A stretch of DNA of 42,664 nt from an uncultured Candidatus Saccharibacteria bacterium (GTDB lineage Bacteria > Patescibacteriota > Saccharimonadia > Saccharimonadales > CAZARM01), in contig CAZARM010000002.1 of NCBI GenBank assembly GCA_964487615.1, forward strand, positions 32,160-74,823, in the 5' to 3' direction. A model generated the notes under the pieces. It saw nothing but the letters and a program-made list of their open reading frames with translations, had not been told where the DNA came from and did no database searches. A program made the position numbers and the translations under genes. Shown here piece after piece: positions 26,798 through 42,585 of the stretch. Each line of letters begins with the position of its first letter. The stretch's first letter is position 1.

Positions 26798-26881
26798 AAG
26801 GGTATTTTAGCGTAAATCACCACTACTGTCTCATCAAGGAAGAAGTGGCATCAGAATGTTGCTCATCAAGAGAGGTACCTT

Positions 26882-27421: not shown

Positions 27422-27496
27422 CTAAAGTAGTCCGCGGCGACGGCGACGGCGCCTGGCGCCTGCAATTGAAACCGGGGTAAGTGGTCGGCCGATCAT
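27422..27496 (-). CDS. candidate 24-aa micro-ORF with a run of seven Arg (MIGRPLTPVSIAGARRRRRRRGLL)
   Basis: Hand translation of the minus strand. AGGAGG lies 8 nt upstream of the ATG, which is 25 nt after the stop of the preceding gene. Too short for the ORF track. Confidence 0.3.
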   Translation of the reverse strand: MIGRPLTPVSIAGARRRRRRRGLL

Positions 27497-27521
27497 AATA
27501 TTGCCCTCCTTTTTACTTAAC

Positions 27522-27950: not shown

Positions 27951-28053
27951 AACTTTCTCCTATTTAACTATTCTCAGTGTGTTCCCCTTAGGTTCAAATA
28001 GCAATTAAATTCAAATACATAACGTCTAGTAAGGTATGAATCCGGTCAGTTGA

Positions 28054-28701
28054 CTATAGCTCTAGCAGAACTTTTCTGAGATCCTTGATTACGTAATCAG
28101 CTTTTACCATTCCTGAATTATTGATGTGAGGGTGGCTGTAAAAATAGGTTGTACCGCCAGCAACTCGACGTAACTCCATGTCACTTTCTGAATCGCCAAT
28201 AATCACTAGCTTTTCAAACTGTTTATTAGACAGATAGTCTTTAAGTGCGTCTTCTTTGACTCCATGTTTCTGATGAGCATTGACACCAATTATTTTCTCT
28301 TCCGGGAAAAACTTTGTGATCCCTACAGTGTTAACAAACCACAATAAATCGTGTGGTCGTGTGTTGGAGAGGATTATTTGATCGTGACCAGCCTCATGAA
28401 TGGCGGTCAGTACTGCTAGCGAATGGTCGCTTGGTTTTATATGTTTGGCCAGTATGTCCAGATTCTTTTCCGCAAACTCAAAGCATGCTGCCTGCAACGC
28501 CATGTGCTGCTTGTTTGTTAACTCTGGCAGCAATCGCTCAAAATATTGAAACCACTTTAGCCCATAGAACTTTCTGTTATCTTCCTCGCTGAAACGTTCG
28601 GCGTAGCCGGCATCCTGTAACACTTGGTTTGAGATATCTAAAACCGCCAGGTCATTGTCCTTTTCCAAAACACCGTGAAAATCCCAAACAAACAATTTCA
28701 T
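28054..28701 (-). CDS. HAD-superfamily hydrolase
   Basis: Motif I as FVWDFHGVL (D-x-H instead of D-x-D), motif II LSNT, motif IV IIGDSESDMEL. Confidence 0.7.
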   Translation of the reverse strand: MKLFVWDFHGVLEKDNDLAVLDISNQVLQDAGYAERFSEEDNRKFYGLKWFQYFERLLPELTNKQHMALQAACFEFAEKNLDILAKHIKPSDHSLAVLTAIHEAGHDQIILSNTRPHDLLWFVNTVGITKFFPEEKIIGVNAHQKHGVKEDALKDYLSNKQFEKLVIIGDSESDMELRRVAGGTTYFYSHPHINNSGMVKADYVIKDLRKVLLEL

Positions 28702-28795
28702 TGGCTAATCATAGCACTCTGGCTTTGATGAGAGCCGCAGAAATTAAGACTTGAATCTGATTGGGAACACACTAGCCACGTCCGTCCTGCGTTTG

Positions 28796-29662
28796 TTATA
28801 ACAAATTGTTCTTGTGGTATACCCGGGCATACGGAGAAATATTTAACAAGCTTTCAGGTTCAACTTGTGAGCTTTTGGAGTTGGCTAAGAGCCTAACACC
28901 TAACCGGGGGCTGTAGCCAATCTTTGACTCTTCCGCCCAATCAGTATTACTCAAAATGTATAGCAAATCCTTGCTACTGACTGTGCCATATGTAGATTTC
29001 ACATACGGTTCATCACCCCCCTTATATGTTGTCACGTCTTCAAATTTTGGCTTCATAATTAGCCCGTAGTTTTCGGCAATATTTCTCATATGCGACTCCG
29101 GGTCTCGCTTGAGAGTTTCTAGGTTTACGTAAACTACATTCTGAAACCTATGTCTAAAACTATCAAAAATGATAATTTTTGATCGACGCATTGCATACAA
29201 GGAGTCGTACTCCTCTATCAATGTACGTTCTTTGACTTGGCTGGTGCGAACACGCTTACTCGGAGAGAACTCGCTACCTGGAGGGTCGCAATGGAATGCT
29301 CTAAAACGATTCCGTATGAAGCTACTAAAGTTCAAACCGTAAGATTCAGGCGACAAATGAGGAGCAAAATGTAGCGATTGAAGCCAATTCATAGGATTTC
29401 TATGGATCACAAATAGTACAGTGTCTTTGGACTCTGCCCAATCAAGCGGCATGATTTTGACATCATGCAAACCGCCTTTGTAATGTAGATATGTTTTGGC
29501 ACCAACATCTCCATGTTTCCAGCCAAAACTTCTCCTGACCATAGGAGTTGCCGCCCCAACAAATAACTTTGGAAAGTTTCTGGTTATCAAAGCATCCAAG
29601 TAATTGGTTCCGGAACAACGCATGCCGTATACTTGGCCACGCTTAATAGCCTGTTTCATCAA
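28796..29662 (-). CDS. sulfotransferase-like protein
   Basis: GMRCSGTNYL resembles the 5'-PSB loop and VIHRNPMNWLQS resembles the 3'-PB motif (R.P.....S). Assignment is tentative. Confidence 0.5.
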   Translation of the reverse strand: MMKQAIKRGQVYGMRCSGTNYLDALITRNFPKLFVGAATPMVRRSFGWKHGDVGAKTYLHYKGGLHDVKIMPLDWAESKDTVLFVIHRNPMNWLQSLHFAPHLSPESYGLNFSSFIRNRFRAFHCDPPGSEFSPSKRVRTSQVKERTLIEEYDSLYAMRRSKIIIFDSFRHRFQNVVYVNLETLKRDPESHMRNIAENYGLIMKPKFEDVTTYKGGDEPYVKSTYGTVSSKDLLYILSNTDWAEESKIGYSPRLGVRLLANSKSSQVEPESLLNISPYARVYHKNNLL

Positions 29663-29796
29663 TGAAAATAGTAACAGTAAAAATAAAAGCTCTCAATGCA
29701 TCGTTCACCTTTAGCACCTGAAGGCGTTGATGAGACGCGAACCTTAGTAAATGCTGTGATCCAACCAAATTTCTTGTTAAACTTTTGCGGCAAAAT

Positions 29797-30636
29797 CTAT
29801 CGGGCGAGTATGCTTTCTATTTCGTCTGCTGCGGCATTGAGAATTTCGGATGGGGCTTGTTCAAAAGCTTTGGTAGAGATTCGAGCTGGCTCATCTGGAT
29901 CAGGTGTCACCCGCATGTGGTCTATATCAAGGCTGACCTGGTCACCCACGATTTTGAACCTTTTCGCGAAGTAGCGGCTACTATCTTCAGGATCAGTATC
30001 AGATATGTGTACTTCCTGGTGGTCAAGCGAGTCGCTGTATCCAGAAGCTTCGTCAACAAAAATTCTGTTGAGCACATTTGCAACATCTTCAAATTTGGTT
30101 TTATCAGGTTCCCAGCCGGGTATCCGAGGCAAGAGAGCACACCTTATGTTGCCAGAACAGATCTTTGATTTTAGCCCTGTTCCCCGTGCATCTAGAATTT
30201 CGTGGAAAAGAGTTATAAAACGACGATTTGCCAGGGCCTCTGGGGTTTGTTGCCCGTCTGCCTCTAGAGATTTCAAACCGTAAGCGATGCAGGTATAGGC
30301 TAGATAGCCAGTTGCTGTTGTGCCAGTGGCATCCATCTCGAACCTAGTGCTCTGAGGAATAATCGTGGTTGGATTATCAGCGTCAAGTACGGTTGGTTCT
30401 TGGGGCAAGGGCTGATCCTCAGTATCCAAGAAAGTAAGTTTCAAATTCTGACCCGGCTGCGGTTCAAAAAGCTCTACAATCTCGTCGTCTCCAGCGGAGT
30501 TAACTACTTCCCGAAAACTAGTAGGGTCTACAATGACCTCAAACAAATTTAAATAGCCAAATCGCTGGCCCTCCCAGCTAGCTACTTGGCCATCAAACCA
30601 AGTATGATCAGGCAATCTCTCTTCAGGATCAACCAT
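29797..30636 (-). CDS. acidic hypothetical protein (279 aa)
   Basis: Long ORF co-directional with the ABC exporter upstream. No motif recognised. Confidence 0.55.
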   Translation of the reverse strand: MVDPEERLPDHTWFDGQVASWEGQRFGYLNLFEVIVDPTSFREVVNSAGDDEIVELFEPQPGQNLKLTFLDTEDQPLPQEPTVLDADNPTTIIPQSTRFEMDATGTTATGYLAYTCIAYGLKSLEADGQQTPEALANRRFITLFHEILDARGTGLKSKICSGNIRCALLPRIPGWEPDKTKFEDVANVLNRIFVDEASGYSDSLDHQEVHISDTDPEDSSRYFAKRFKIVGDQVSLDIDHMRVTPDPDEPARISTKAFEQAPSEILNAAADEIESILAR

Positions 30637-30680
30637 AATGAGTATATTATACTATATAGATAAATAAACGTCAATAATGC

Positions 30681-31484
30681 CTATATGCTAACGTCTCTGG
30701 TGTTGAAGCGCCAGGCAGCAAGGATGCTACCAAGAATAATTATGCTACCGAATACAATCCATGAGCTCGACATGATGTGGCCGGTAGATAGCGTTTCGGC
30801 CGTATTGAAGTAAAAGAATAATGAGAAGTGCTTTAGCCATGACAAGTCGTTGCTGATAAGCGCCAGGAGGTAGGCAACATAGCTAACAATTATGGCGCTG
30901 GTAGTAATTGCGTAAACTTTGCCTTTTTCACTGACCCAACTGGATACAACCAGCCCAACAACGTAGATAGTCAGCATAAACAGACTGGTCAGAACCCAGG
31001 CATTAAACAGTACTGTGAAGTGAGAAGGGATGTTATAGGCTGCGGCCCAAGGAATCACCCCGAAGACCGAGACACCCGTGAACAGCAATATAGTTACCAG
31101 CCCTGCCACATACTTGGCGGTGAAGATCTGAATCCTTTTTTGAGGCAATGAAAGCAACAGACCCATGGTGCCGTTTTGAATTTCGCCAGCAAATTGGCCA
31201 GCCGCTCTACCCAAGGCGATGATTATGGCAAGCAAGGGCCACAGCAGACTGAAATGCTTAGCGTTTAAGTACTCCTCAATAGTATCCAGAGACAGATTGT
31301 TTAAACCTAGCGCGTCCAGCAGACCTTTAGGGTACGTCTTTACTAGCTCCTGAAGTTGTTGAGTACTGTTTTGTGACGATCTGAATGTGGCAACATATAG
31401 CCAAATCATTAGCAATGAACCCAGGCAGTAGGCGAGTAATGACCACTTTTTATCTTTGAGTTCTCTTGCTACGATTTGCCACAT
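30681..31484 (-). CDS. ABC-2 family permease
   Basis: Six predicted TMs. Starts 1 nt after the ATPase gene stop. Confidence 0.7.
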   Translation of the reverse strand: MWQIVARELKDKKWSLLAYCLGSLLMIWLYVATFRSSQNSTQQLQELVKTYPKGLLDALGLNNLSLDTIEEYLNAKHFSLLWPLLAIIIALGRAAGQFAGEIQNGTMGLLLSLPQKRIQIFTAKYVAGLVTILLFTGVSVFGVIPWAAAYNIPSHFTVLFNAWVLTSLFMLTIYVVGLVVSSWVSEKGKVYAITTSAIIVSYVAYLLALISNDLSWLKHFSLFFYFNTAETLSTGHIMSSSWIVFGSIIILGSILAAWRFNTRDVSI

Positions 31485-31485
31485 C

Positions 31486-32352
31486 TTAGTAATACTCCAT
31501 AAACACGTCTTCTAGACTGACGTGGGAAATCTCTAGATCTACAAGCTGGTATTTGGACAAGGTTTTAGCTATAAAATCCAAGCAACCGCGCGTCTTGAGG
31601 CGAATATTGTTGCCGCTTCCACCTAGGATTTCTACACCTTCCCTCTGAAATTCTTTCTGGTCAATTGTCTGTTTAGTTACTGCCTGCACAATGTGGACGG
31701 TCATTTGTAGTATGTCTTTCATGGCCTCGCTAGCAACCAGCTTGCCTTCTTTAATAACTGCCACGCTGTCGCACAGCTGCTGCACTTCAGATAAGTTATG
31801 TGAGGACAGAAAGACACTGCCGCCTGCCGCACTAAATTCTTTCAGAAGTTTATATAGCTCGTTTTGAAGTAATGGGTCCAGACCTCGGGTGGGCTCGTCC
31901 ATAATAAGTAGCTTGGGATCCCCCAGAAACGCAAGGATGATAGCCAACTTCTGTTTGTTGCCAGATGACAGGCGACCGATCCTGACATTTGTGTCTAGAT
32001 TAAATCTTTTGACCAATTCGTCAGCCCAGCCCCTGCCTTTTATACTGCCGATAAAGTCTATATGTGTCGATGCTGTCCATTTGTCATGCAGTTGCATATC
32101 AGATGAAAGGTACCCAACCATGTTCTTTAAATCGGCACTGTCATCATGGGCGTCGTGTCCTAGAATGTGTATTTCGCCGGAAGTAGTCCTGATGTAATCC
32201 ATCAAGCAACGAATCATAGTGGTCTTGCCAGCACCATTTGGCCCTAGGAACCCAAAGATATGGCCCTTTTGGATAGTTAGAGAAACTTTGTCCAAGGCTC
32301 GTTTTGAACCAAAGGTTTTAGTTACGTTTTTGATTGATATTGCAGTTGCCAT
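31486..32352 (-). CDS. ABC transporter ATP-binding protein
   Basis: Walker A GPNGAGKTT, signature LSSGNKQK, Walker B LLIMDEPTRGLD, H-loop SSHNL. Confidence 0.9.
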   Translation of the reverse strand: MATAISIKNVTKTFGSKRALDKVSLTIQKGHIFGFLGPNGAGKTTMIRCLMDYIRTTSGEIHILGHDAHDDSADLKNMVGYLSSDMQLHDKWTASTHIDFIGSIKGRGWADELVKRFNLDTNVRIGRLSSGNKQKLAIILAFLGDPKLLIMDEPTRGLDPLLQNELYKLLKEFSAAGGSVFLSSHNLSEVQQLCDSVAVIKEGKLVASEAMKDILQMTVHIVQAVTKQTIDQKEFQREGVEILGGSGNNIRLKTRGCLDFIAKTLSKYQLVDLEISHVSLEDVFMEYY

Positions 32353-32526
32353 GCTAATACGATAGCAGAGTTGGCCGGCTATTTCTGACTTAGTCGATAT
32401 TCATGGCCATGAAAGCTTTATCCGAGGTGATCATAGTCACACTCAAAAAGTGAGCATCATTACTGCTGGCCGGTCCGGCCAGGCCTATTATTTAAGTGTA
32501 ATTAATAGCAGACGGAGGATAGCGCT

Positions 32527-32955
32527 ATGGCAACAGTACAACGTCAACAAGTTACAGGGTGGACTGGCTGGGTCGGGCTGGCCGGGATATTAATGGTAAC
32601 GGCAGGTATCGTGCATATGCTTTTTGGCCTAGGAGGAATATTTAGCCAGGACTGGTACATTACAACCTCAAATGGAGCATGGCTTTTTGACGCTTCTGCT
32701 TGGGGGTGGTCAATGATTGCCGGAGGACTATTATTGGTCCTATCAGCATCCTTGCTTATGACGGGGCACATGCTTGGAAGGGTAATTGGCGCGATCTTAG
32801 CAGCAGCTAGCTTGCTTGTGAATGTCGCTCTTTTTTCCGCCGCTCCAGTATGGTCATCTCTTGTCATATTTATGGATGTGGCAATGCTCTACGCCATCAT
32901 TGCTCATGGAGGCGAAATGAAACAGCTGGAAGACAACGATCCCACAGTTTCATAA
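32527..32955 (+). CDS. four-TM integral membrane protein, unknown function
   Basis: Four hydrophobic helices rich in Gly, Ala and Trp. Followed by a terminator. Confidence 0.6.
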   Translation: MATVQRQQVTGWTGWVGLAGILMVTAGIVHMLFGLGGIFSQDWYITTSNGAWLFDASAWGWSMIAGGLLLVLSASLLMTGHMLGRVIGAILAAASLLVNVALFSAAPVWSSLVIFMDVAMLYAIIAHGGEMKQLEDNDPTVS

Positions 32956-32960
32956 GCAAT

Positions 32961-32990
32961 AAAGGCTTTGAGGTCACTCGAAGCCTTTTT
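32961..32990 (+). terminator. intrinsic terminator
   Basis: AAAGGCTT / AAGCCTTT stem followed by a TTTT run. Confidence 0.6.
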
Positions 32991-33075
32991 GTATGTGCCG
33001 ATAAATGATCAATAGATCTGCCCCTGACCTTACATGTCTCAAACAGGGCACATAAGCCTATGCTATGCTTAGGTT

Positions 33076-33537
33076 ATGAAGGCTGGTCAAAAGCACGCAT
33101 ATGATTTTCTTAAGCTCAACCACATGGGCATTTTGTCCACATCAACAGATGATTGTAAGCCCTGGGGATCGGCAGTTTACTTTGTTGTCGACGAAGATTT
33201 TAACATATTCTTTGTAACCCGCATGAAAACGTTTAAGTACCAGAATCTAGACAAAAATCCCTACGCGGCGCTGACAGTAGTGGATGAAGAAACTCAGACT
33301 ACAGTGCAGCTCATGGGTAAAATATCAAAAGTACCGATCGCAGATTACAAGGACATAGTTTTTACCAAACTCGTCGCTATTCGACCTAAAGGTGATCCAA
33401 ATTGGGCGCCTCCTATAGAGAAGGTACACAAAGGTGACTATATTGCCCTGCGGATTACACCTAGCAAACTACAGTACGCTAACTTCAAGCTACAAAGCAA
33501 AGATTTCGACCATAACTACGTAGAAAAGATTATCTAA
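33076..33537 (+). CDS. pyridoxamine 5'-phosphate oxidase-like (FMN-binding split-barrel) protein
   Basis: The pattern FL....MGILST......PWGSAVYFVVDEDFNIFFVT...T.K..NL..NP.AALTV is typical of PNPOx-like proteins. Confidence 0.65.
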   Translation: MKAGQKHAYDFLKLNHMGILSTSTDDCKPWGSAVYFVVDEDFNIFFVTRMKTFKYQNLDKNPYAALTVVDEETQTTVQLMGKISKVPIADYKDIVFTKLVAIRPKGDPNWAPPIEKVHKGDYIALRITPSKLQYANFKLQSKDFDHNYVEKII

Positions 33538-34325
33538 GAAAGTAGTGCGCCACCATCTACTACTATCTGTTCACCAACCATGTAGCTGGCCATGTCAGAA
33601 GCTAGAAATAAGGCAACGGTACCGATCTCATCAGGTTCACCCATCCGGTGCATAGGGATGTTGGCCATGAACGCTTTGGTGCTGGCCGCCATTTGTTCAG
33701 CAGATGCGCCTTGACTCATTGCGGCCACGCCAGGTGTAGCAACTCCACCAGGTGCAATAGCATTGACCCAAATCTTATGTTCGGCTAACTCTAGAGCTGA
33801 GTTTTTGGTGAAGCCCCAGACACCGTGCTTAGAAGCATCATAGTGGGCTAGGCCAACCATCGAAGGGTGCAGGGCATCGATAGATGTAATGTTGATAATC
33901 TTGCCACCGCCTTGGGGCTTCATTACCTCAGCCGCATGTTTTGTGGTCAGGAACACGCTCCTTAGATTTACATGGATGACTCTTTCAAATTCTTCCTCGG
34001 ACATTTGAGCAACAGGCTTAGGTGGGTAAATACCGGCGTTATTGACTAGTATATCTACCGATCCAAACTTCTCTTTGCAAGCTGCAATCATAGCTTGGAC
34101 TTGCGCTTCGTCTGATACATCAACTTTGAATATTTCGGCTTTCCAGCCCTTGTCCACCAATTCCTTTGCGGTCGCCTGTGCTGTTTGCTCATCAAGGTCA
34201 GCAACAAGTACTTTTGCACCAGCTTCGGCCAGACGGTAACTTATGCCGTATCCAATACCTTTTGCACCTCCAGTCACAACAGCAACTTTACCGGTTAAAT
34301 TAAGCAGGTCTTTATTTGGTTTCAT
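33534..34325 (-). CDS. short-chain dehydrogenase/reductase (FabG-like)
   Basis: TGGAKGIGYG, NNAG and catalytic S...YDASKHG. Confidence 0.9.
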   Translation of the reverse strand: MKPNKDLLNLTGKVAVVTGGAKGIGYGISYRLAEAGAKVLVADLDEQTAQATAKELVDKGWKAEIFKVDVSDEAQVQAMIAACKEKFGSVDILVNNAGIYPPKPVAQMSEEEFERVIHVNLRSVFLTTKHAAEVMKPQGGGKIINITSIDALHPSMVGLAHYDASKHGVWGFTKNSALELAEHKIWVNAIAPGGVATPGVAAMSQGASAEQMAASTKAFMANIPMHRMGEPDEIGTVALFLASDMASYMVGEQIVVDGGALLS

Positions 34326-34732
34326 GAGTGAACCTTTTCTTTAGTTAATATATCGTCAACTTCAATAATCAAAGATTTATTAGATAGGGAAGTTTCTGCC
34401 AAAGACAGGCAGAGGCTGACAATCATTGCAATGACGGACAGACCAAAAGAGTAATTACCAAGATTCTGCAATTCGGCAAAAATCAAAAACATTGAAGCAC
34501 AAGCTAAGGCCAGAGCAATAGCTCCAATTGTCAGCATGTAACGGGATAGTTCTATTCTTTTTTTGAGAATCCTGATTTGGAGTGCCACCTGGACTCGTTT
34601 GTATCCTTGATCATACTCAGCTTTAAAAGTTCTTATGACAGCCGCGGTACTTTGATAACGATTTACATAACCAAGCATCAATATAGCAATTGCTGGAAAT
34701 AATAAAGCGGGTGTTGTTATAGGAATGTCCAT
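34322..34732 (-). CDS. three-TM membrane protein (DUF2721-like)
   Basis: Hydrophobicity pattern plus 4-nt start/stop overlap with the SDR gene. The family name is from memory only. Confidence 0.5.
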   Translation of the reverse strand: MDIPITTPALLFPAIAILMLGYVNRYQSTAAVIRTFKAEYDQGYKRVQVALQIRILKKRIELSRYMLTIGAIALALACASMFLIFAELQNLGNYSFGLSVIAMIVSLCLSLAETSLSNKSLIIEVDDILTKEKVHS

Positions 34733-34760
34733 AAACTAGATACTAACATAACCTTTATAG

Positions 34761-35027
34761 TTAACTAGTTTTCTTGCTATCAGCTTCGGCTTCCATTTTA
34801 GCTAGTCGTGTGTAGTAGTCCGGAATTTCTTTCAGATGAGCCCATGCTATGCGTCCCGTAAAGAGTGGGTCGTCTTTGGTCACGTTGGTGTCGTCTCCAA
34901 AGTGCGAGCCGTGTTCTAGCTCAACTGCTAAACCCATGCGGAATTGCTCTAAATCAAACTTTGTAAAATCAATACCGATTTCTTCGCCAATCTTTTTGGC
35001 CTCTTCGAGTGTAAATTCTTTCTTCAT
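34761..35027 (-). CDS. small acidic cytoplasmic protein (DUF5661-like)
   Basis: ORF track. The G..VE.EH....T.VT.DD......IA.AHL.E.PDYY..L motif is recalled from memory. Confidence 0.5.
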   Translation of the reverse strand: MKKEFTLEEAKKIGEEIGIDFTKFDLEQFRMGLAVELEHGSHFGDDTNVTKDDPLFTGRIAWAHLKEIPDYYTRLAKMEAEADSKKTS

Positions 35028-35116
35028 AAGTCCTCCAGCCCCTAGTCTACTCTAAACGTAAGCCAAACAAGACTTAAAACAAACATGAAGCTTTATATCT
35101 TCTAGAGACTCACTAT

Positions 35117-35435
35117 TTAGCCGTGAACTCTTCTCATAAGCTGTTGCTTTAGGTGATATCTACTTTGCACACAAAGCCTGAACACGGTTCCGAAATCTCG
35201 CTTACCTACCGATACTGGTTCGTCAGGATGTGGCATGTATTTAAAAAAATCTTCCATGATGGTCCTTCTAGCCCTATCGGGCGTAGCGTAGCTTAAATTT
35301 AGGTACTTTATGTAGTCGGTATAGATTTTTGTTATACGGTTCAAAGGAAGTGGTGTAATAACCTGGCAACACAGTTAGGTCGCGCACATCGATTACTCCC
35401 TCGATCTCTTTACTGTTAAATTTTCTCTTAGTCAT
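35117..35435 (-). pseudogene. two overlapping short ORFs in adjacent frames, possibly one frameshifted gene
   Basis: A 53-aa ORF (35274..35435; AGGGGGA Shine-Dalgarno plus ATG) overlaps the 75-aa TTG-started ORF (35117..35344) in an adjacent frame. The overlap contains an A5 run (AACAAAAATC). Confidence 0.3.
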
Positions 35436-35573
35436 AAATCCCCCTACTACTTACAACTAATATTTTGAGACATGTGATTGATGCGCTAAATGACACTGCT
35501 CAACATTACTATGTGATATCAATCAATTGCAGTTTGACTTAGCGAAGACTATAGTGCCTACAGAGGTTAACGC

Positions 35574-36221
35574 ATGACTGAAGATGTCGCCACCAAAATT
35601 GAAGAATTTTTTGCTAAGTACAGGTTGCGAAGCTATTCAAAGGGCCAGATTCTAATACTTAGCGGAGATCAAGCCGACTACGTATATCACCTCATTAAGG
35701 GCAAGGTTAAACAGTACGACGTAACCTACAGAGGTGATGAGATCATTCTGAATGTATTTAAACCTCCTGGCTTTTTCCCTATGTCACTGGCAATTAATAA
35801 AGTACCTAATCCCTATATTTACGAAGCTGAAAGTGACGTTGAGATCCGCCAAGCACCTGCTAATGAAGTGATCGCTTTCATAAAGGCCAATCCTGATGTC
35901 TTGTATGACTTACTGAGCAGGGTTTACAAAGGGGTAGATGCTTTACTTGGCCGCATGACGTACTTAATGGCCGGCAGTGCCCATAGTCGTTTGATATACG
36001 AACTCTTAATTGAAGCACGAAGGTTTGGCACTCAGCAGGGGGATGGCTGCGTACTGGATATTAACGAAAAAGCTTTGGGAGCTAGAGCCGGCTTAAGCCG
36101 GGAGACAGTTAGCCGTGAGATCCATAAACTTAAAGAAGAAAAGATGATAGAAACTGGTAGCACAGGCATTCTAATTAATAATGTTGCAGCACTTGAACAG
36201 AAACTTGGTCCAGAAGTTTAA
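35574..36221 (+). CDS. Crp/Fnr-family transcriptional regulator
   Basis: N-terminal cNMP-binding beta-barrel and C-terminal HTH (ALGARAGLSRETVSREIHKLKEEKMI). No N-terminal Cys cluster, so Crp-like rather than Fnr-like. Confidence 0.85.
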   Translation: MTEDVATKIEEFFAKYRLRSYSKGQILILSGDQADYVYHLIKGKVKQYDVTYRGDEIILNVFKPPGFFPMSLAINKVPNPYIYEAESDVEIRQAPANEVIAFIKANPDVLYDLLSRVYKGVDALLGRMTYLMAGSAHSRLIYELLIEARRFGTQQGDGCVLDINEKALGARAGLSRETVSREIHKLKEEKMIETGSTGILINNVAALEQKLGPEV

Positions 36222-36724
36222 GTCTTAAAATCTAGCGTTTCGTAGATATCGGCCCCACTGGGATCGGGACGTCTGAATATAGCCATTCGTATTTGAACTG
36301 GCTTTAGTTTGTAAGCCACATAGCCGCCGGCTTGAAGTTTTGATATAGGCGGGTTACCGGATTCACTCGTATCTCTAGATGCCTTCAATGTATCTATAAA
36401 GATCTGCTTAGCTTGCACCTTGTTATCCACAATTTCAGTAACTCCTGTGACTTGAGCTGTTGTTTGACTTGTCGGTTCATAAGTCACCAGCATAGCGTGA
36501 TTGTTGTGCACAAGATTGTCGTGTTTCTTGGTTCTTTCTTTTGTCGTAAACAAAATGTTAAATTCCTCGTCAACTGAAAAGTAAATCGTTGCAGCGTGCG
36601 GATTACCGTTTGGGTCAACGGACGCCAATACGCCGATACGATTATTCTTGAGAAAATCGTAAATTCTTTGACTACTCTCGGATGATCCTGGAAGTGGCTT
36701 CTTAGGGGCTTTTAAAACATTCAT
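36218..36724 (-). CDS. pyridoxamine 5'-phosphate oxidase-like (FMN-binding split-barrel) protein
   Basis: IYDFLKNNRIGVLASVDPNGNPHAATIYFSVDEEFNILFTTKERTKKHDNL is paralogous in pattern to 33076..33537. Confidence 0.65.
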   Translation of the reverse strand: MNVLKAPKKPLPGSSESSQRIYDFLKNNRIGVLASVDPNGNPHAATIYFSVDEEFNILFTTKERTKKHDNLVHNNHAMLVTYEPTSQTTAQVTGVTEIVDNKVQAKQIFIDTLKASRDTSESGNPPISKLQAGGYVAYKLKPVQIRMAIFRRPDPSGADIYETLDFKT

Positions 36725-36855
36725 GGTGACTCTCCATTACAAACTTATTTTCTAGCAATCACCATGCATACACAGTGAGCTTAATCACTCTTAGTTGATG
36801 ATTCGCATCAAGGCAAAAAGTTATTACGACTGCTTCAATATAAATGGGGGATGAA

Positions 36856-37374
36856 ATGATGTACACAGTACCTAAATCAAATAATGAGCTGCTTGTAAAA
36901 GATCAAGGCAAAGTTGATGACAAGGCAGCCGATGGTGTAAGCCACAAGGAACGAATTAAGCGTGAATTGCGAGCACTTGGTGTTACAAAACATGCGCTCC
37001 GACGGGGAGGAGGGCGTTATCTGCCTAGTATGATCCACCCGGATGAACATATCGGTGGGGTGGTATATGGGAGGCGTGATTCTAGTTTTGTGGTATTGGT
37101 CGCAACTGATAGGCGTATTATTTTTCTCGACAAGCAGCCATTATTTATCAACGAAGACGAGATTACGTACTTCGTCGTCAGTGGCGTGAGCTATAGCCAT
37201 GCCGGAATTGGCTCAACGATCACGTTGCACACCAGAATAAAGGATTATCCCATACGTACCCTAAACCAAAAGTGTGCAACAGGCTTCATGAGATATGTAG
37301 AACAACGATGTCTGGAACATAAGAGTCAAAAGGAGGAAAGCCATGATAACCCTGAACAAAGCTGGGCTGTATAA
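36856..37374 (+). CDS. bacterial PH-domain-like protein
   Basis: GVVYGRRDSSFVVLVATDRRIIFLDK....NEDEITY..VSGV resembles bPH/YokE-like domains. GGGGGA Shine-Dalgarno precedes the ATG at 36856. Confidence 0.5.
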   Translation: MMYTVPKSNNELLVKDQGKVDDKAADGVSHKERIKRELRALGVTKHALRRGGGRYLPSMIHPDEHIGGVVYGRRDSSFVVLVATDRRIIFLDKQPLFINEDEITYFVVSGVSYSHAGIGSTITLHTRIKDYPIRTLNQKCATGFMRYVEQRCLEHKSQKEESHDNPEQSWAV

Positions 37375-37747
37375 GCTCATCGAGACCAAACATAACACCA
37401 GAGTGCTCTACCTGGATAATGACACCTATGCTTGGGTGGAACCAAGGAACATTGGTGAGATCCTTGTAGCGTCGCGCAAAGTTCACAAAACCGACTGTGT
37501 ACTAAGTCTTGGCCACTACCGACTATATGATGTTAAAGACGAACCAGCTTTATCTGATCAAATGCATCTAGAATTGGAAGTAGGAAGAAATCACTGGCAA
37601 GGTTATTTACTACTCAGCGGGCTACCAGATTTCCATAAACTGCGAGGGCGAATAATCCCCACCCAAGAAGTGATCACCGGCAACCCCAACTTTGCGCATA
37701 GAAAGGTATATGAAAACCTGGCAGCTGAAACCACCGTGCATTGGTAA
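37343..37747 (+). CDS. hypothetical protein (134 aa)
   Basis: Strong AAGGAGG Shine-Dalgarno. Overlaps the previous gene by 32 nt. Confidence 0.55.
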   Translation: MITLNKAGLYKLIETKHNTRVLYLDNDTYAWVEPRNIGEILVASRKVHKTDCVLSLGHYRLYDVKDEPALSDQMHLELEVGRNHWQGYLLLSGLPDFHKLRGRIIPTQEVITGNPNFAHRKVYENLAAETTVHW

Positions 37748-37769
37748 CCTTAAGTAGGAGGACAAAATT

Positions 37770-37982
37770 ATGGGCTACAACATATCAACTAATTGGACCG
37801 TCGTACTGATATTAGTAGCTCTATGGGAATTTGTTTGGAAAGGTCTTGCTCTGTGGAAAGCAAGCCGCAATAACCAAACTGGTTGGTTTGTAACACTACT
37901 ACTTATAAACAGTGCCGGTGTCTTGCCAATTATTTATCTGCTAACACATCGCAATATAACTAACGAGGTAGTAAAGGAGTAA
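37770..37982 (+). CDS. small two-TM membrane protein (DUF5652-like)
   Basis: AGGAGG Shine-Dalgarno and the motif W.F.WKG.ALWKA.R.....WF......N..G.L.I.YL. Confidence 0.6.
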
Positions 37983-37986
37983 TATC

Positions 37987-38175
37987 ATGAAACAGTTATA
38001 TTTATCGAAAGATAAAAAATTATTGGGCGTATGTGGAGGAGTTAGTGAATACTTTGATATCGACCCTAGCCTGGTGCGTCTCGGCTGGATAGTAATGACA
38101 GCGCTGACTGGTGTGTTCCCCGGCATCATCGCATACCTTATTGCGGCGATAGTTATCCCTAAAAATCCAGCGTAA
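37987..38175 (+). CDS. PspC-domain membrane protein
   Basis: [33 protein letters not shown] is the canonical PspC domain. Confidence 0.8.
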
Positions 38176-38230
38176 CCAATTTGCTACTCTGACATGTAAC
38201 ACGAGGAGCCTAACTGCTACAATCTAAGCC

Positions 38231-38641
38231 ATGGGATATTTGTTTATTTTAGGCTATATATTACTGGTTGGTGTCGCCACGTTCTTAATGAAAGTTAGCC
38301 TAAAGAGCCTAAGCCCTTATCAACTGAATTTCCTCATGGGTATCGGCATGTTAATCACCGGCATACCGGCGATATTAATTGCTCATCGTTCGTTTAAAAT
38401 GCCAGCCAAGGAAGTGCCTGTGGGCTTATTGATTGGGACAATGATGGCCGTTGGTTCAATTCTATTTGTGCTTGCACTTAATAAACTGCCCGTTAGTGTT
38501 GCATCAGTTTTAGCTGCCACCTATGTTGCCGTGGCCATACTTCTATCCTGGCTTTTCCTTAAAGAAAGCTTTGACACTATAAAGATAATAGGCATAACTC
38601 TGACCTTTGTCGGAGTGTTACTACTTACATACAAATCCTGA
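38231..38641 (+). CDS. EamA-like (DMT superfamily) four-TM half-transporter
   Basis: Four TMs and the ...VSVASVLAATYVAVAILLSWLFLKE.....KIIGI.L...GV pattern. Confidence 0.65.
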   Translation: MGYLFILGYILLVGVATFLMKVSLKSLSPYQLNFLMGIGMLITGIPAILIAHRSFKMPAKEVPVGLLIGTMMAVGSILFVLALNKLPVSVASVLAATYVAVAILLSWLFLKESFDTIKIIGITLTFVGVLLLTYKS

Positions 38642-38698
38642 ATAATCACCAAGCCGGACTCTAATCTAGGCAGATAACCTCTGATTTTTATGGCTACA

Positions 38699-39346
38699 TC
38701 ATTTCCTTTTACCAATAACATCCATCTCACCGCCAAAACTATCCATGGCTTTTTGGAACAATTCATGACTGACTTTTCGATTTTCCAAAGCAGGCAATCC
38801 AGGATCGTGAAACCAAATGTTTTCGTCGTCAAAACCAGTAACAACCACCGAGTGACCAACGTAACCTTTCTTACTATTGAGGGTACTTTGATTTACGCAT
38901 ACTTTCGCCAAATACCCATTGCTGTAAGCGTCTTTGATATCTTGGATAGTCGGTTGCTCAGGGATGACCTCTATCCTTGCCAGGTACTCAGGTGTGAGCC
39001 GCATAGCTTCTTCGAAGTCTGAATTTTCTTCTTGCCACGAAGCAATCTCGTCTCCAAAAGCTTCTCGAATATACTCAACTCCTTTATTTTGGAAAGCAGT
39101 ATAATCAAAATTGCTGTAATGCTTAACCTCATAACCATGGTTTACAAACCAGAGAGACCACTGCATCTCCCAGGTGCCTTTTTCCGGCTGCTTATCTGTA
39201 ATTTGTTCCATATCTGTGAGTGAATATCTTTTGTTTGGCTCAAAGAATCCTAGTATCATTTGTAGGCTATTCTCAACACAATGTATTCCTTCAGGATGTT
39301 CTGGAGTGGGACTACTGGAGTAAAAAGGAATCTTCAAATTCATCAC
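38699..39346 (-). CDS. papain-fold (C39-like) cysteine peptidase domain protein
   Basis: Candidate nucleophile context GIHCVENSLQMILGF and His context GHSVVVTGFDDENIWFHDPG. Inference from motif spacing. Confidence 0.5.
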   Translation of the reverse strand: MMNLKIPFYSSSPTPEHPEGIHCVENSLQMILGFFEPNKRYSLTDMEQITDKQPEKGTWEMQWSLWFVNHGYEVKHYSNFDYTAFQNKGVEYIREAFGDEIASWQEENSDFEEAMRLTPEYLARIEVIPEQPTIQDIKDAYSNGYLAKVCVNQSTLNSKKGYVGHSVVVTGFDDENIWFHDPGLPALENRKVSHELFQKAMDSFGGEMDVIGKRK

Positions 39347-39399
39347 CTAACTATAACAAAAATGGTAATGTCGAACCTGGAACAGCTTAAAAGTAAAAG

Positions 39400-39834
39400 C
39401 TATATATCGACCGGTTTGTCTGGTAGCCATGTGCCGTCGACTCGCATGTCAAATTGTATCCCCTCGGGAGCATTTGTGAATCCTGGGTTTCTGCAATAAC
39501 GAACACCAGGAAGTATCCAGACAAGTGCGTTTGCTATTCTGCTTTCAAATTTACGGCCATGTTTAGTACCTGGGCAATCCGGGCTAACATAAACTAGAAC
39601 TTCATCAAGATTTTCGGCAAACAACTCTGAAAACTCGGCATGAAATTCACTTGCCGCCAAGGACCCATCGGCTGGTGAAGCTTTAGGATACCGCTGAATA
39701 AAATCAAGGTGGTTAAAGCCTTGCTGTATAGATTTCTGCTCTTCCTTCTTGCTTTTCTCCAGAGCATTAAGCTGCCTTAGTATGACGGGACACTTTCTGC
39801 AACGTTCTGGGGTAGACTCTAAGTACTCACTCAT
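39400..39834 (-). CDS. hypothetical protein with CxxC and further Cys residues
   Basis: ORF track (CRKC near the N-terminus). No family recognised. Confidence 0.45.
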   Translation of the reverse strand: MSEYLESTPERCRKCPVILRQLNALEKSKKEEQKSIQQGFNHLDFIQRYPKASPADGSLAASEFHAEFSELFAENLDEVLVYVSPDCPGTKHGRKFESRIANALVWILPGVRYCRNPGFTNAPEGIQFDMRVDGTWLPDKPVDI

Positions 39835-39896
39835 ACATAACAGATTATTGACCTAGGAATTGTCCTTTGCAAGCATGAACAAGATGTTAATCAGCA

Positions 39897-40166
39897 CTAG
39901 GCTGTCAATTTTCTTAACTCGTTATCAATAGTTTGTATTTCTCTGCTCTCAGCTCTTTCACCTCGCGCTAAGACTACTAGCCCGCCCAGACCAACTAAGC
40001 CCAAAGCTGGATCATGTTCGACAATTGCATCTACTAACAAAACAGCATCCAGAACTAATCCAATTCGCGCACCAAGTCTAATGTTCCAATGAAGTCGTCT
40101 ATCTCTAAATGCTTGCATTGCTTCTGCGTAATGCCTAGGCGGTTCAAGCGCGCTGTCTATTCCCAT
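39897..40166 (-). CDS. small hypothetical protein
   Basis: ORF track only. One hydrophobic Gly/Leu/Val-rich segment. Confidence 0.35.
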   Translation of the reverse strand: MGIDSALEPPRHYAEAMQAFRDRRLHWNIRLGARIGLVLDAVLLVDAIVEHDPALGLVGLGGLVVLARGERAESREIQTIDNELRKLTA

Positions 40167-40234
40167 AGTTAAATTGTCTCACAATAGTCAAAATCAATCA
40201 GTAGAGGTTAGCGCTTTGGCTAAAGCTCAGTGGC

Positions 40235-40852
40235 TCAATTGTTAAGTGTTGTTATTGAACCATTTGGGTTTTTAGTCCATGACTCGGTATTCGGGTCAGT
40301 GGAACACTCCATCGCAAACTCCTCGTAGATAAGACCACCATTCTTGCTTTTGCACACAGGTCCATTAAGTGTTTCTTCGTCCCATGTTCCTTTTGGTGTC
40401 AAAACCCAGATTATTGGTGCTCCCCCAGCATGCCCCTCACCATTCTTATCAACTGGAGCCTGACCACCAGCAATATTTACCTGACTTATTTTGCTAATGT
40501 TGTATTGAGCAATGGTATCCACATCATCAATGTCATTATGAGAAAACTTGTTCTTGCTAAGGACATCAAGCATATATGCCTTGAAACTTGCGGGTGTATA
40601 GTCCGGCAACTTACTGATATCAGCTTCTGTCTGCATTGTTATATCAACTTCATGAATCGTTGTGTCTATTTTCGTATTTCCTGCTGGCGTCGATGATTCT
40701 GTGGAAGCTGGACTGTTGCTCTCAGTCGAGCCTCCATTCCGATTGTTGTACACATAGTAGCCAACGCCTCCAATGATGCCAATAGCTACCAGAATCACCA
40801 ATATCCCAACTACACCAAACCCTTTGTTACCAAGCTTTTTCATACTATCCAT
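40235..40852 (-). CDS. membrane-anchored exported protein, unknown function
   Basis: Internal ATG at 40852 or 40843. MKKLGNKGFGVVGILVILVAIGIIGG anchor, S/T-rich linker, and a globular domain with two Cys. Confidence 0.55.
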   Translation of the reverse strand: MDSMKKLGNKGFGVVGILVILVAIGIIGGVGYYVYNNRNGGSTESNSPASTESSTPAGNTKIDTTIHEVDITMQTEADISKLPDYTPASFKAYMLDVLSKNKFSHNDIDDVDTIAQYNISKISQVNIAGGQAPVDKNGEGHAGGAPIIWVLTPKGTWDEETLNGPVCKSKNGGLIYEEFAMECSTDPNTESWTKNPNGSITTLNN

Positions 40853-40895
40853 ATATTTGGTTGGCCTAATCATAATACTTAGCTTATAAGTGTAC

Positions 40896-40942
40896 AATAA
40901 AAAGACCTCCATTTCTGGAAGGCATAATGCTTATGCTTGGTA
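40896..40942 (-). repeat. distal copy of the tRNA-trailer direct repeat (includes a terminator-like hairpin)
   Basis: 40923-40942 (CATAATGCTTATGCTTGGTA) is identical to 42268-42287. The flank 40896-40922 is an imperfect match with a hairpin plus A-run (U-run on the minus strand). Confidence 0.8.
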
Positions 40943-40997
40943 ACCCAAGTACGTTCAAATTGGAACGACCTGAGGGCAGAATTAGGTAGATGGAAAC

Positions 40998-41717
40998 CTA
41001 TGTGTGAGTGGGTCCGGGCCTTACTTCAACAAAGTTTCCCAGCATGAAATCCATGATTAAGTCATGGGCTCGATAGGCTATCGGTAACTGCAATTTTGTA
41101 TACCATTCGGCTTTATCCTCACCGTTTGGAGTTTCAAATTGTACAGTTTGTAAAATATCGGCATCATTTTCTTCGTAAGCTTGGCGAAGGGTTGGCACAT
41201 CGTAATACTGTACGCAAGTTAAATTTGGATTGGCACTTAGGAGCAATGTTTCGGGTATGTATATATGCTCAGTTCCCTCTAGCGCCGGCAGGCATCGTCT
41301 GTAGCAAGGCAACAAAGTTGGTGCCTTCAGTTGTGTAGTGTCATCTGGTTGGACATCGGCAACAACCGCTATGGCGCTAAGGGGTTCACGTGCCAAACTA
41401 ACTGTTGCTTGTAAAACCATTTCTTCGGCATGAATATCAATTGGCCCATTTTGTGCAGGTTTGATATTAACGCCATGTAAAAGACTTACCGCATTATCAT
41501 CATCCAAAAACGTGACCCCACAAGCTGCTACTCGAAAATCCCGCCAAGATTCAGCAAACTGGAGAGAGCGTTGAGCCCTAATAAGCGCTACAACTGCATC
41601 CCCTGTCTGTCTAAGAATAGGATGGGATTGTTCTGCTCCACGAAAAACATGCATCTGCACAACAGGCTCATCAACAACACCACTTACATCGAATAAATTT
41701 TCAGCGTTTGCAATCAA
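40998..41717 (-). CDS. divergent cytidine/deoxycytidylate-deaminase-fold protein
   Basis: FRVAACG...HGVNIKP....IDIHAEEMVL...AIAVVAD...LLPCYRRC aligns with the CDA layout (F.VGAA, G.N.E, [CH]AE, PCxxC). A ~90-aa C-terminal extension follows. Confidence 0.6.
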   Translation of the reverse strand: MIANAENLFDVSGVVDEPVVQMHVFRGAEQSHPILRQTGDAVVALIRAQRSLQFAESWRDFRVAACGVTFLDDDNAVSLLHGVNIKPAQNGPIDIHAEEMVLQATVSLAREPLSAIAVVADVQPDDTTQLKAPTLLPCYRRCLPALEGTEHIYIPETLLLSANPNLTCVQYYDVPTLRQAYEENDADILQTVQFETPNGEDKAEWYTKLQLPIAYRAHDLIMDFMLGNFVEVRPGPTHT

Positions 41718-41737
41718 ACTACTATCCTTGATAAATC

Positions 41738-42184
41738 TTACGCAGCGTCTCTGGCTATTTCTTGACGAGCTTTTTCAACGCCGCCTGCTATTCCCAAAAG
41801 TTGCTGCATACCGGGATGATGAGTATCAATCCAATCTGTCGCTTCATCTTCATTGCTAAACTCTAAAAGACTCGTAAGTAGTCGCTCAGCACGTTCGTCG
41901 GCTATTGTCTCAGCTACACCTAGTAAGACAACGGCTTCCTCTGCCTTATCACTTACATGAAGGTCATGGACATGCGCACCAGCTTCGAAGTAAGATATTG
42001 ACCTTGCCTGGTCAAATCGAGTTGTAGGGCTGCCATCGATAAGACCACTACCGATAAAGGGAGCAGCTTCTACTCGAGCCTGTATTTGGCCGATAAGTAA
42101 TTCGGCTTCCATTTCTCTATGTGCTCGCTCAAAAGTAATTTCCTCAATGGGAGTGTCTCGTGTAATAAGTTCGTATATGTACAT
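41738..42184 (-). CDS. acidic hypothetical protein (148 aa), first gene of the cassette
   Basis: ORF track. AAAGGAAA Shine-Dalgarno-like sequence. Lies 20 nt upstream of the deaminase-like gene. Confidence 0.5.
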   Translation of the reverse strand: MYIYELITRDTPIEEITFERAHREMEAELLIGQIQARVEAAPFIGSGLIDGSPTTRFDQARSISYFEAGAHVHDLHVSDKAEEAVVLLGVAETIADERAERLLTSLLEFSNEDEATDWIDTHHPGMQQLLGIAGGVEKARQEIARDAA

Positions 42185-42239
42185 AATAATTTCCTTTATT
42201 ATTCAAGCCTATACTTCACGCTAATGCAAGCACGAGCAA

Positions 42240-42287
42240 AATAAAAATGACTCCAGTATCCTGAAGTCATAATGCTTATGCTTGGTA
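42240..42287 (-). repeat. proximal copy of the direct repeat, comprising the tRNA 3' end, trailer and intrinsic terminator
   Basis: ATGACTCCAG tatc CTGAAGTCAT hairpin (one mismatch) with AAAAATAAAA on the plus strand (U-run on the minus strand). Overlaps the tRNA by 5 nt (TGGTA). Confidence 0.8.
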
Positions 42288-42357
42288 GCGGGGGCCGGAC
42301 TCGAACCGGCGACCTTGTGGTTATGAGCCACACGAGCTGCCACTGCTCTACCCCGCG
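42283..42357 (-). tRNA. initiator-type tRNA-fMet (CAT)
   Basis: The reverse complement CGCGGGGTAGAGCAGTGGCAGCTCGTGTGGCTCATAACCACAAGGTCGCCGGTTCGAGTCCGGCCCCCGCTACCA closely resembles E. coli tRNA-fMet. It has an unpaired 1:72 position (C1/U72), A11:U24 and an encoded CCA. Confidence 0.9.
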
Positions 42358-42446
42358 TCGTCGAAGCAAGGCTTTAGCCTTGCGGAGACGACCAACAAAA
42401 CAAGTTTCCTGGTCTTCCCCGCAAATTTTCGGCTTGCTTCTCCTCC

Positions 42447-42499
42447 TAAATTTCTAAACAGTCGATTCGGCCAAGCCGACTTCTTGGTTTAGAAATTTA
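42447..42499. repeat. 53-nt inverted repeat / long hairpin
   Basis: TAAATTTCTAAAC (42447-42459) pairs with GTTTAGAAATTTA (42487-42499). An inner AGTC..GGCcaaGCC GACT stem lies between the arms. Confidence 0.5.
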
Positions 42500-42585
42500 A
42501 AAGACGAAAATCAAAAGAGCTCAGTAATCTTAACAAACAGAGGTGGATGTGTCAATTGAGAATATAAAACTAGCTACTTGCTGAA

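Follow-up and report, generated by a model that had tools for sequence, protein, structure and literature searches.

Architecture of the tRNA-fMet locus

The stretch analysed here (hereafter the window) comprises 42,664 nt of contig CAZARM010000002.1 (GenBank assembly GCA_964487615.1, positions 32,160 to 74,823 of the forward strand) from an uncultured Candidatus Saccharibacteria bacterium. It carries an initiator-type tRNA-Met(CAT) gene on the minus strand (42283..42357; ARAGORN, and Rfam tRNA model at 62.6 bits), directly behind whose 3' end lie two genes enclosed by a short direct repeat. We argue that the enclosed segment, 40938-42282, is probably one mobile gene cassette of 1,345 nt that sits at the TACCA end of the tRNA as an array of a single unit. 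The tRNA has a C1xU72 mismatch, an A11:U24 pair and G30G31:C39C40, and its acceptor stem resembles that of E. coli; these features fit an initiator, and we take the tRNA as tRNA-fMet. The gene ends in TACCA because position 72 is a T (U72 opposite C1). In the tRNA-fMet of both the window and one related locus (L012; loci of relatives carry the prefix L throughout), a U29:A41 pair replaces the canonical third G:C pair of the anticodon stem.

The repeat itself is a 20-mer, CATAATGCTTATGCTTGGTA, found exactly at 40923-40942 and 42268-42287, with no third copy in the window at 3-4 mismatches. Two copies arose in 0 of 100 shuffles of the sequence (mean 0.02), and the same region is the top direct repeat of the interval from 26 to 42.6 kb (44 nt, 80% identity, spacing 1345). 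An initial annotation of this DNA had placed the identical pair at exactly these coordinates and had proposed that similarity continues imperfectly on the trailer side, that the second copy overlaps the last 5 nt of tRNA-fMet, that a hairpin and T-run follow both copies on the minus strand, and that the repeats enclose two genes. Pairwise alignment of the copies, the ARAGORN and Rfam placement of the tRNA, a terminator scan and the open reading frames (ORFs), exactly two of which lie between the repeats, both on the minus strand, agree with it on every one of these points. The repeat therefore consists of tRNA positions T72-A73-C74-C75-A76 (TACCA) and 15 nt of apparent trailer.

Read on the minus strand, the segment begins after the proximal core TACCA (42283..42287), whose role as the junction of tRNA and cassette comes from the mapping of sequence switches in 13 site pairs described below. 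The left end (42237..42282) is made up of the trailer AGCATAAGCATTATG (42268-42282), a hairpin (42247-42270) and a T-run (42237-42246); the hairpin is terminator-like (42270-42247) and folds strongly (-16.6 kcal/mol, z -4.5). A promoter-like region and 5' untranslated region follow at 42185..42236, with a box, TTGCTCGTGCTTGC, at 42226-42239 that overlaps the end of the T-run and recurs behind left ends in L015 and L008. A scan for sigma-70 promoters at 42185..42236 gave no strong match, and the region is a putative promoter on the strength of its position and the recurring box. Two cargo genes come next, gene A (41738..42184, minus strand, 148 aa, acidic and predicted to be all-helical) and gene B (40998..41717, minus strand, 239 aa, a predicted zinc enzyme of the cytidine deaminase fold with the motif HAE...PCxxC). 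The segment closes with a feature that the initial annotation had overlooked, namely a conserved right-end element ending in ...GTTCCAATTTGAACGTACTTGGGTTACCA (40938..41051, minus strand; nhmmer E 1.9e-13 over model positions 19-133, and E 1.7e-17 with a 95-nt profile). A profile search finds this sole copy in the window, upstream of the distal copy of the 20-mer, and its 5' part shares ~50 nt with the end of gene B.

The distal core TACCA (40938..40942, minus strand), placed by the exact 20-mer and by site alignments, joins the cassette to the sequence that follows. There a second left-end module (40895..40937, minus strand) repeats the order of trailer (40923-40937), hairpin (40905-40923) and T-run; it too is a terminator-like site (40923-40905), with a weaker fold (-11 kcal/mol, z -1.9), and it belongs to the next unit or to an older flank. 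Past this distal terminator lies a promoter-like site of the downstream gene, TGTACA-16-TATGAT (40869..40896, minus strand; promoter scan), and inside it a degenerate third copy of the trailer motif can be made out by eye on the plus strand (40868-40890, TCATAATaCTTAGCTTataa); L006 has an inverted copy of the trailer motif at the equivalent place. The downstream gene (40235..40912, minus strand) encodes a predicted membrane-anchored protein with no family match, and its true start is probably MKKLG, at about 40843-40845.

How the two left-end modules relate to each other bears directly on their origin. The proximal one is 96% identical over 51 nt to the left end that follows tRNA-fMet in L010, and 92% identical over 65 nt to a left end that follows a non-tRNA element in L015, yet it matches its own distal counterpart at only 83% over 48 nt. 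The distal module, in turn, is 88-89% identical to left ends of L011 and L012, exceeding its identity to the proximal copy. As each copy is nearer to left ends of other species than to its partner, a single duplication did not produce them, and since the proximal copy finds its better matches elsewhere, the 15 nt after TACCA are the left end of a cassette subfamily and not the native trailer of the tRNA. The earlier proposal of an insertion at the tRNA that duplicated its trailer thus holds in one half: the two genes do behave as a unit inserted at the tRNA 3' end, while the duplication of the trailer has to be given up. The comparison of base composition that had been suggested with it points the same way, in that the cassette genes have the lowest GC content at third codon positions (GC3) in the window (0.315 for gene A and 0.338 for gene B, against 0.46 +/- 0.07). 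With this GC3, no close homologues of either gene in protein searches, and relatives of gene B that are ordinary chromosomal genes elsewhere, the cassette looks foreign.

Related cassettes form arrays behind tRNA genes

We scanned one genome for each of 185,579 species, together with Joint Genome Institute (JGI) metagenomes, for exact matches to the 20-mer, a genome-wide search that the initial annotation had suggested. The motif proved not to be private to this locus: it occurs at 13 genome loci and 17 metagenome loci. Eleven of the 13 genome loci (contigs) belong to 10 Saccharibacteria, Saccharimonadales or Patescibacteria metagenome-assembled genomes (MAGs), and the motif stands in about 14 metagenome contigs as well; the other two genome loci and a few of the metagenome matches have unrelated flanks and are in keeping with the roughly one match expected by chance. 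The tRNA-fMet of the window is 90-97% identical to the array-heading tRNA-fMet genes of L010, L012, L013, L015 and L032, and an FtsB-like neighbour gene is syntenic between the window and these relatives, from which it follows that the window is Saccharibacteria chromosome.

In several of these loci the 20-mer abuts a tRNA, as it does in the window: tRNA-fMet in L010 and L012, tRNA-Arg GCG in L007 and L014, and tRNA-Arg TCG in L022. More often it follows a conserved non-tRNA element of 115-130 nt that ends in GGGCTACCA and is laid out as ...TCCAnCnAnnTAACTC...GGTTCCAATTCGAATGnACTTGGGC followed by TACCA; the distal copy in the window is preceded by one such element. A profile built on this element finds further copies with diverged trailers, and these lie in arrays on the same strand. 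Six sites lie within 8.4 kb in L026 and six in L008; tRNA-fMet is followed by five sites in L015 and by two in L013; and on the single contig that holds L012 and L011, tRNA-fMet is followed by one element in L012 and three more in L011. Same-strand arrays are also found in L006 and L030. One or two sites stand behind tRNA-fMet in L010, tRNA-Arg TCG in L022, tRNA-Arg TCT in L024 and tRNA-Leu TAG in L017. Sites within arrays are spaced at 0.2-4.3 kb, typically ~1 kb, the room of one or two genes, which are mostly co-oriented with the element, with the cargo of several cassettes antisense to it.

The choice of tRNA is narrow. All tRNAs that head sites in this sample (fMet, Arg GCG/TCG/TCT and Leu TAG) end in TACCA, and none of the tRNAs in the same loci that end in CACCA, GCCA or CCCA has a cassette. 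The left ends, on the other hand, cross between tRNAs. One and the same 'trailer' stands behind several different tRNAs because it belongs to the cassette and not to the tRNA, and a second left-end family, with the hairpin GAACCGTTACNCGGTTC, follows tRNA-fMet in L013 and tRNA-Arg TCT in L024. The initial annotation had also considered that the 20-mer might be a common motif scattered through the genome; it is indeed widespread among Saccharibacteria, yet its copies are grouped in arrays that follow tRNA genes and are not scattered. A 'decayed element', the other description then offered, fits poorly, since cassettes without a recombinase are the rule in every array seen.

Two further observations concern the array loci. 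A second repeat family of ~140 nt, of the form GGTCACG...GGGACGCAACAGCTTTAGCTGATGCAAGTCCC...GGGCGCCTGGATTAATGTGCGCTTGCCCTGGCCCCGCTACCA and with no Rfam match, lies just past some left ends, with copies on the minus strand of L026 at about 1500-1365, 5627-5453 and 7040-6900 and in L030 at 178-351; one copy ends in a tRNA-fMet-like CCCCGCTACCA. Separately, L015 contains a group I intron (5750-5941, plus strand; Rfam 69 bits, E 1.6e-15) with a weak tRNA-like/tmRNA match at 5908-6003. This intron probably splits a tRNA, given that L012 and L013 have an uninterrupted tRNA(CAT) at that place and ARAGORN calls none in L015.

Nature of the two ends

Across the family the left end measures ~45-65 nt and consists of AGCATAAGCATTATG, a hairpin whose stem shows compensatory changes, and a T-run, with a box, TTGCTnnnGCTTGC, in one subfamily. 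The right end, at 115-130 nt, is conserved in sequence, and its start often coincides with the stop codon of the cargo. Two motifs in it, GGTTCTAGTCC and GGTTCCAATTC, resemble T-loops; neither ARAGORN nor the Rfam tRNA model (threshold E<=10 for the window and E<=1 for seven loci) calls the right end a tRNA, and it has no Rfam match of any kind. RNAalifold on 16 right-end elements returned no conserved fold (-1.35 kcal/mol) and 0 covarying pairs. Because its sequence is conserved without a structure, and because some of the cargo is antisense to it, we argue that the right end is a site bound by protein on the DNA rather than an RNA.

A number of other identities were tried for these ends and set aside. 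The right end is not a decayed copy of tRNA-fMet, as alignment shows no homology past TACCA and the sequence matches a cross-species element family instead; nor is it a structured RNA or a member of a known RNA family, for want of both an Rfam match and a consensus fold. A reverse-strand ORF, MLMLG..., that starts in the 20-mer is broken by stop codons in several of the copies. The trailer contains, by eye, CATAA-GCA-TTATG, which recalls a dif/Xer-like site, but its spacer is 3 nt and not 6. The dyad CTTGG-GCTA-CCAAG, which surrounds the core, is confined to a single element subfamily and so is no general feature. We likewise find neither the terminal inverted repeats nor the target-site duplication of miniature inverted-repeat transposable elements (MITEs) or repetitive extragenic palindromic (REP) sequences, and the two halves of the sites assort independently.

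The flanks of the core TACCA assort independently

Such assortment is seen most directly in two near-identical strains, represented by L030 and L026. A cassette that they have in common is identical over the ~130 nt aligned from GGGCTACCA onward, through trailer, terminator and leader and into the gene, and 98.3% identical over its full 1,194 nt. Upstream of GGGCTACCA, identity between the element bodies is only ~60%, and the genes before them are unrelated. Furthermore, the first junction in L030 combines parts that match two different L026 sites: its element body is 95% identical to one of them, its trailer identical to that of the other. At the level of the family, these two strains therefore show presence/absence polymorphism of cassettes with precise junctions. 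Across the loci, 27 site pairs are discordant, one flank of TACCA being at least 85% identical and the opposite flank no more than 50%. In 13 aligned pairs, element-versus-tRNA pairs among them, the switch between conserved and unrelated sequence falls in (G)TACCA when approached from either direction. Because the flanks of TACCA assort independently and the switch lies in (G)TACCA, the exchanged unit would consist of a left end, its cargo and a right-end element, with the crossover placed by these alignments inside the 5-6 nt that are also tRNA positions 72-76.

Cargo of the cassettes

Gene A is an orphan in the databases searched: only itself was found among 5.8 billion proteins, and it has no match in Pfam, PADLOC or NCBIfam. 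Gene B can be placed further. It gave a weak PF00383 match in the scan of window ORFs and has 106 remote homologues (107 matches including the query; best 51% identity) in a family of ~230 aa, 28 of 40 members of which match PF00383; residues H96, E98, P137, C138 and C142 are invariant in the 40 sequences, and the profile matches homotetrameric cytidine deaminases in the PDB at E 1e-6. Gene B is accordingly predicted to be a divergent enzyme of the cytidine deaminase superfamily, by its zinc-binding motifs H(A/C)E...PCxxC, with a predicted fold. Single-sequence AlphaFold2 models were unusable (predicted local distance difference test, pLDDT, of 44 for gene A and 32 for gene B). The remote homologues of gene B are ordinary chromosomal genes, one example lying between ruvA and ruvC, and no element is found near them. 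A defence or toxin role of the cargo was considered and dropped, as there is no PADLOC or NCBIfam match.

The other cassettes encode NUDIX, HAD, methyltransferase, P-loop kinase, SDR, histidine phosphatase, IMPase, aldo-keto reductase, GH10, trehalose-P synthase, MFS, EamA and APH-type proteins, a repertoire of accessory metabolism and transport that includes small-molecule and nucleotide enzymes. A nucleoside or nucleotide deaminase, as proposed for gene B, fits this profile. To link gene A and gene B in function would be speculative.

A proposed mechanism

The explanation that we favour, and that we consider reasonably probable, is that the window cassette belongs to a family of recombinase-less cassettes for which TACCA-ending tRNA genes serve as anchors and which move by site-specific recombination at TACCA. 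In this scheme the 3' end of tRNA-fMet would act as an anchor comparable to attB or attI, and a cassette would enter at TACCA in the order core TACCA, 15-nt trailer, terminator hairpin and T-run, promoter-like box, one or a few cargo genes, and right-end element ending in (GGGC)TACCA. Since each cassette recreates a TACCA-ending site at its distal side, cassettes can stack behind the tRNA in arrays of one orientation. Movement would be catalysed in trans by a recombination enzyme encoded elsewhere in the genome, the left-end hairpin would terminate the tRNA transcript and insulate the cargo, and the cargo would be expressed from its own promoter.

More tentatively, the Saccharibacteria, and perhaps other Patescibacteria, may possess an integron-like platform for gene capture of independent origin. 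On such a platform the CCA end of a tRNA could take the place of attI, the cassettes would be self-expressed units of ~1 kb, the recombination site of ~200 nt would be split over both ends of a cassette, and a trans-acting recombinase would add, remove and shuffle them, so that these ultra-small, host-dependent bacteria could draw on a common pool of accessory metabolic genes.

Several observations speak against the proposed movement at TACCA or narrow its basis. No integrase or other recombinase is encoded among the ORFs of the 42.6-kb window, as the initial annotation had seen in reporting neither integrase nor transposase, and neither the 30 larger nor the 82 smaller ORFs of the array loci (8-kb snippets) gave a Phage_integrase-type match or an integrase fragment among the matches listed. 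The element and the 20-mer are absent from IMG/VR, from INPHARED phages and from PLSDB plasmids. A core of 5 nt is short for a classical tyrosine integrase. No circular form or second copy of the window cassette was found, and searches with the exact proteins yielded nothing but short Logan unitigs of the same strain, with no empty-site allele; the flanking proteins of the window locus, moreover, have no homologues in the fetched loci. The relatives are all MAG or metagenome snippets of at most 8 kb that were picked by the 20-mer, which brings ascertainment bias, the base-level comparison within a lineage rests on the one strain pair L026/L030, and assembly chimeras at repeats are conceivable.

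The exceptions to the lack of recombinases are two large serine recombinases with Resolvase and Recombinase domains, in L013 (2776-4431, plus strand) and L015 (6158-7549, minus strand). Both are convergent with a neighbouring tRNA(CAT), lie 0.6-2 kb from the array-heading tRNA-fMet, and score below the Ccr and XisF cut-offs. Such genes thus occur at two of the five tRNA-fMet loci with upstream sequence in view (the window included), beside another tRNA, and we regard them as a lead and not as an association. In L013 the last ~126 nt of the recombinase gene are repeated in inverted orientation at 2495-2614, so that the gene is bracketed by inverted repeats.

Alternative explanations

The arrays could instead be the debris of successive classical integrations, in which integrase-bearing islands or satellites (tycheposon-like) or prophages decayed to remnants bounded by attachment (att) sites; we consider this unlikely. 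The 3' ends of tRNAs are classic integration hot spots, and accreting islands bounded by partial tRNAs are documented in Prochlorococcus (doi:10.1101/2020.12.28.424599). Insertions of a different, more conventional kind have left their mark at some of our sites: 18-20-nt duplicates of the tRNA-fMet or tRNA-Leu(TAG) 3' end stand ~190-200 nt downstream, directly before the 20-mer, in L032 (2383-2660) and L017 (11533-11838; also in L018 and L023), and a 25-nt tRNA-fMet 3' fragment precedes the 20-mer in L021 (947-989). Dozens of units that all keep the same two conserved ends and one intact cargo operon each would not, however, result from random decay, and no array contains integrase fragments among the matches listed. 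The part held in common with the tRNA is 5 nt, as against the 18-50 nt typical of tyrosine integrases that target tRNAs, and the right-end element is not a partial copy of the local tRNA. Shuffling without any dedicated enzyme, in which a repeated intergenic module, MITE-like or a set of homologous terminators, lets homologous recombination or gene conversion exchange genes, for instance after natural transformation, seems to us quite unlikely. Some Saccharibacteria at least are naturally competent, neighbouring sites of an array often have 45-70 nt identical, and such a process would account for the failure to find a recombinase. Yet movement of a unit of this kind predicts concordant flanks, where 27 pairs are discordant, and homologous breakpoints would be expected across ~200 conserved nt, where those mapped fall within 5-6 nt flanked by ~60%-identical sequence. 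Terminal inverted repeats and target-site duplications are lacking, and the 42.6 kb of the window hold one copy of the element, beside a TACCA-ending tRNA.

Single-strand 'peel and paste' transposition by a HUH Y1 TnpA of the IS200/IS605 type, with TACCA as target and right-end cleavage site and the cassettes as non-autonomous elements, would explain insertion directly 3' of a fixed pentanucleotide, the lack of a target duplication, the strict orientation and the regeneration of the target by the right end. The layout of IS608 even resembles the arrangement of target and subterminal hairpins seen here, where the left end has a hairpin 15 nt from its border and a small hairpin, GTTC...GAAT, precedes the TACCA of the right end by ~10 nt. 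We nonetheless rate this as very unlikely: the hairpins of the two ends are not related in sequence, while in known elements one TnpA binds both ends; the left hairpin with its T-run looks like an ordinary terminator; the conserved right end is longer than such ends require; and the matches listed (25 of 41 families) for the 82 small array ORFs include no Y1 transposase. Of the explanations weighed, we give least credence to one by RNA function, in which the element is a tRNA-like 3' untranslated region or processing signal ending in CCA and the repeats reflect selection for mRNA or tRNA 3' processing. The element does end in ACCA before a terminator, as tRNA genes do here, and has its two T-loop-like motifs, but ARAGORN and the Rfam tRNA model fail to recognise it, RNAalifold finds neither a conserved fold nor covariation, cargo is antisense to it in some cassettes, and the independent assortment at TACCA is left unexplained, which makes this reading highly improbable.

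Surroundings of the locus

Upstream of tRNA-fMet lie an inverted repeat (42438-42508, 22-nt arms, 82% complementary), a GC hairpin (42361-42390) and, near these repeats, a good sigma-70-like site, TTGACA-17-TAAGAT (42555-42527); together, these features of 42361-42555 are probably the promoter region of the tRNA. On the other side, two P-type cation ATPase genes (20189-22867 and 24383-26797) flank the FtsB-like gene (22903-23355). In relatives the FtsB-like gene adjoins tRNA-fMet; in the window, tRNA-fMet is 19 kb away and inverted, a displacement that suggests rearrangement at a hot spot. GC content drops from ~0.49 over 1-26800 to ~0.44 from ~26.8 kb up to tRNA-fMet (gene means 0.487 versus 0.437; GC3 0.495 versus 0.429), and the whole 15 kb 'downstream' of tRNA-fMet (26800-42300) may be an older flexible island. 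A search for older cassettes further in revealed no extra element or 20-mer across 1-40.9 kb of the window.

Significance and relation to known systems

Saccharibacteria are epibionts with genomes of ~1 Mb that are thought to be poor in classical mobile elements, and how they exchange accessory genes is poorly understood. Our literature searches turned up no description of such arrays in Saccharibacteria or Patescibacteria; the cassette family is widespread in Saccharibacteria and, as far as we found, undescribed. If the proposed recombination at TACCA is correct, it would give gene flux in the Candidate Phyla Radiation (CPR) a concrete route that can be tested. It would also mark where strain-specific genes are located, an aid to binning, pangenomics and annotation, and provide a natural landing pad, a tRNA 3' end with defined cassette ends, for genetic tools in the few cultivable strains. 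Moreover, the problem that integrons solve, the stockpiling of small gene cassettes, would then have a second solution that evolved independently.

Elements of the IS200/IS605 type insert in a specific orientation 3' of a fixed 4-5-nt motif, make no target duplication and carry subterminal hairpins. The cassettes differ from them in that no TnpA was found among the matches listed for the array ORFs, the hairpins of the two ends do not resemble each other, and the conserved right end is a long one. A further analogue is offered by the staphylococcal cassette chromosome (SCC) and pseudo-SCC elements at rlmH (orfX), where tandem units, many of them without a recombinase, are bounded by short direct repeats and mobilised in trans by large serine recombinases. 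The arrays described here are likewise tandem recombinase-less units at one site, with large serine recombinases of weak Ccr/XisF similarity near two array heads. Unlike them, SCC elements target the 3' end of a protein gene and measure 3-60 kb.

Prochlorococcus tycheposons carry their own tyrosine or serine recombinase and replication genes and are flanked by ~40-nt partial tRNAs (doi:10.1101/2020.12.28.424599). They resemble the present cassettes in that a variable region grows by repeated insertion at tRNA 3' ends (tRNA-Met and tRNA-Arg included) that leaves the tRNA intact, in that newer units push older ones distally with att repeats between units, and in that the host genomes are streamlined. 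The units here, however, are ~1 kb and lack a recombinase, the window cassette encoding gene A and gene B only; just 5 nt of the tRNA are common to both, and a dedicated right-end element that is not a tRNA has been conserved between species.

Integrons, for their part, likewise hold same-orientation arrays of recombinase-less units of ~0.5-1.5 kb, each with one or a few accessory genes and a conserved end site. In both systems the junction core is very short (GTT in integrons, TACCA here), additions take place at a fixed anchor, and the cargo includes accessory enzymes and transporters. There are also differences. The anchor is the CCA end of a tRNA and not an attI beside intI, the host belongs to a CPR phylum, and no intI was found in the window or in the 8-kb array snippets. 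The right-end element has neither an attC-type hairpin nor the R''/R' GTTRRRY cores, and the junction is TACCA, not G|TT. Integron cassettes depend on Pc, whereas those described here carry a terminator-like hairpin and a promoter-like box; from the left-end hairpin, T-run and conserved box they appear to be self-expressed. Of the known systems, the integron is the nearest in function, and the tRNA-anchored islands and tycheposons of Prochlorococcus are the nearest in location.

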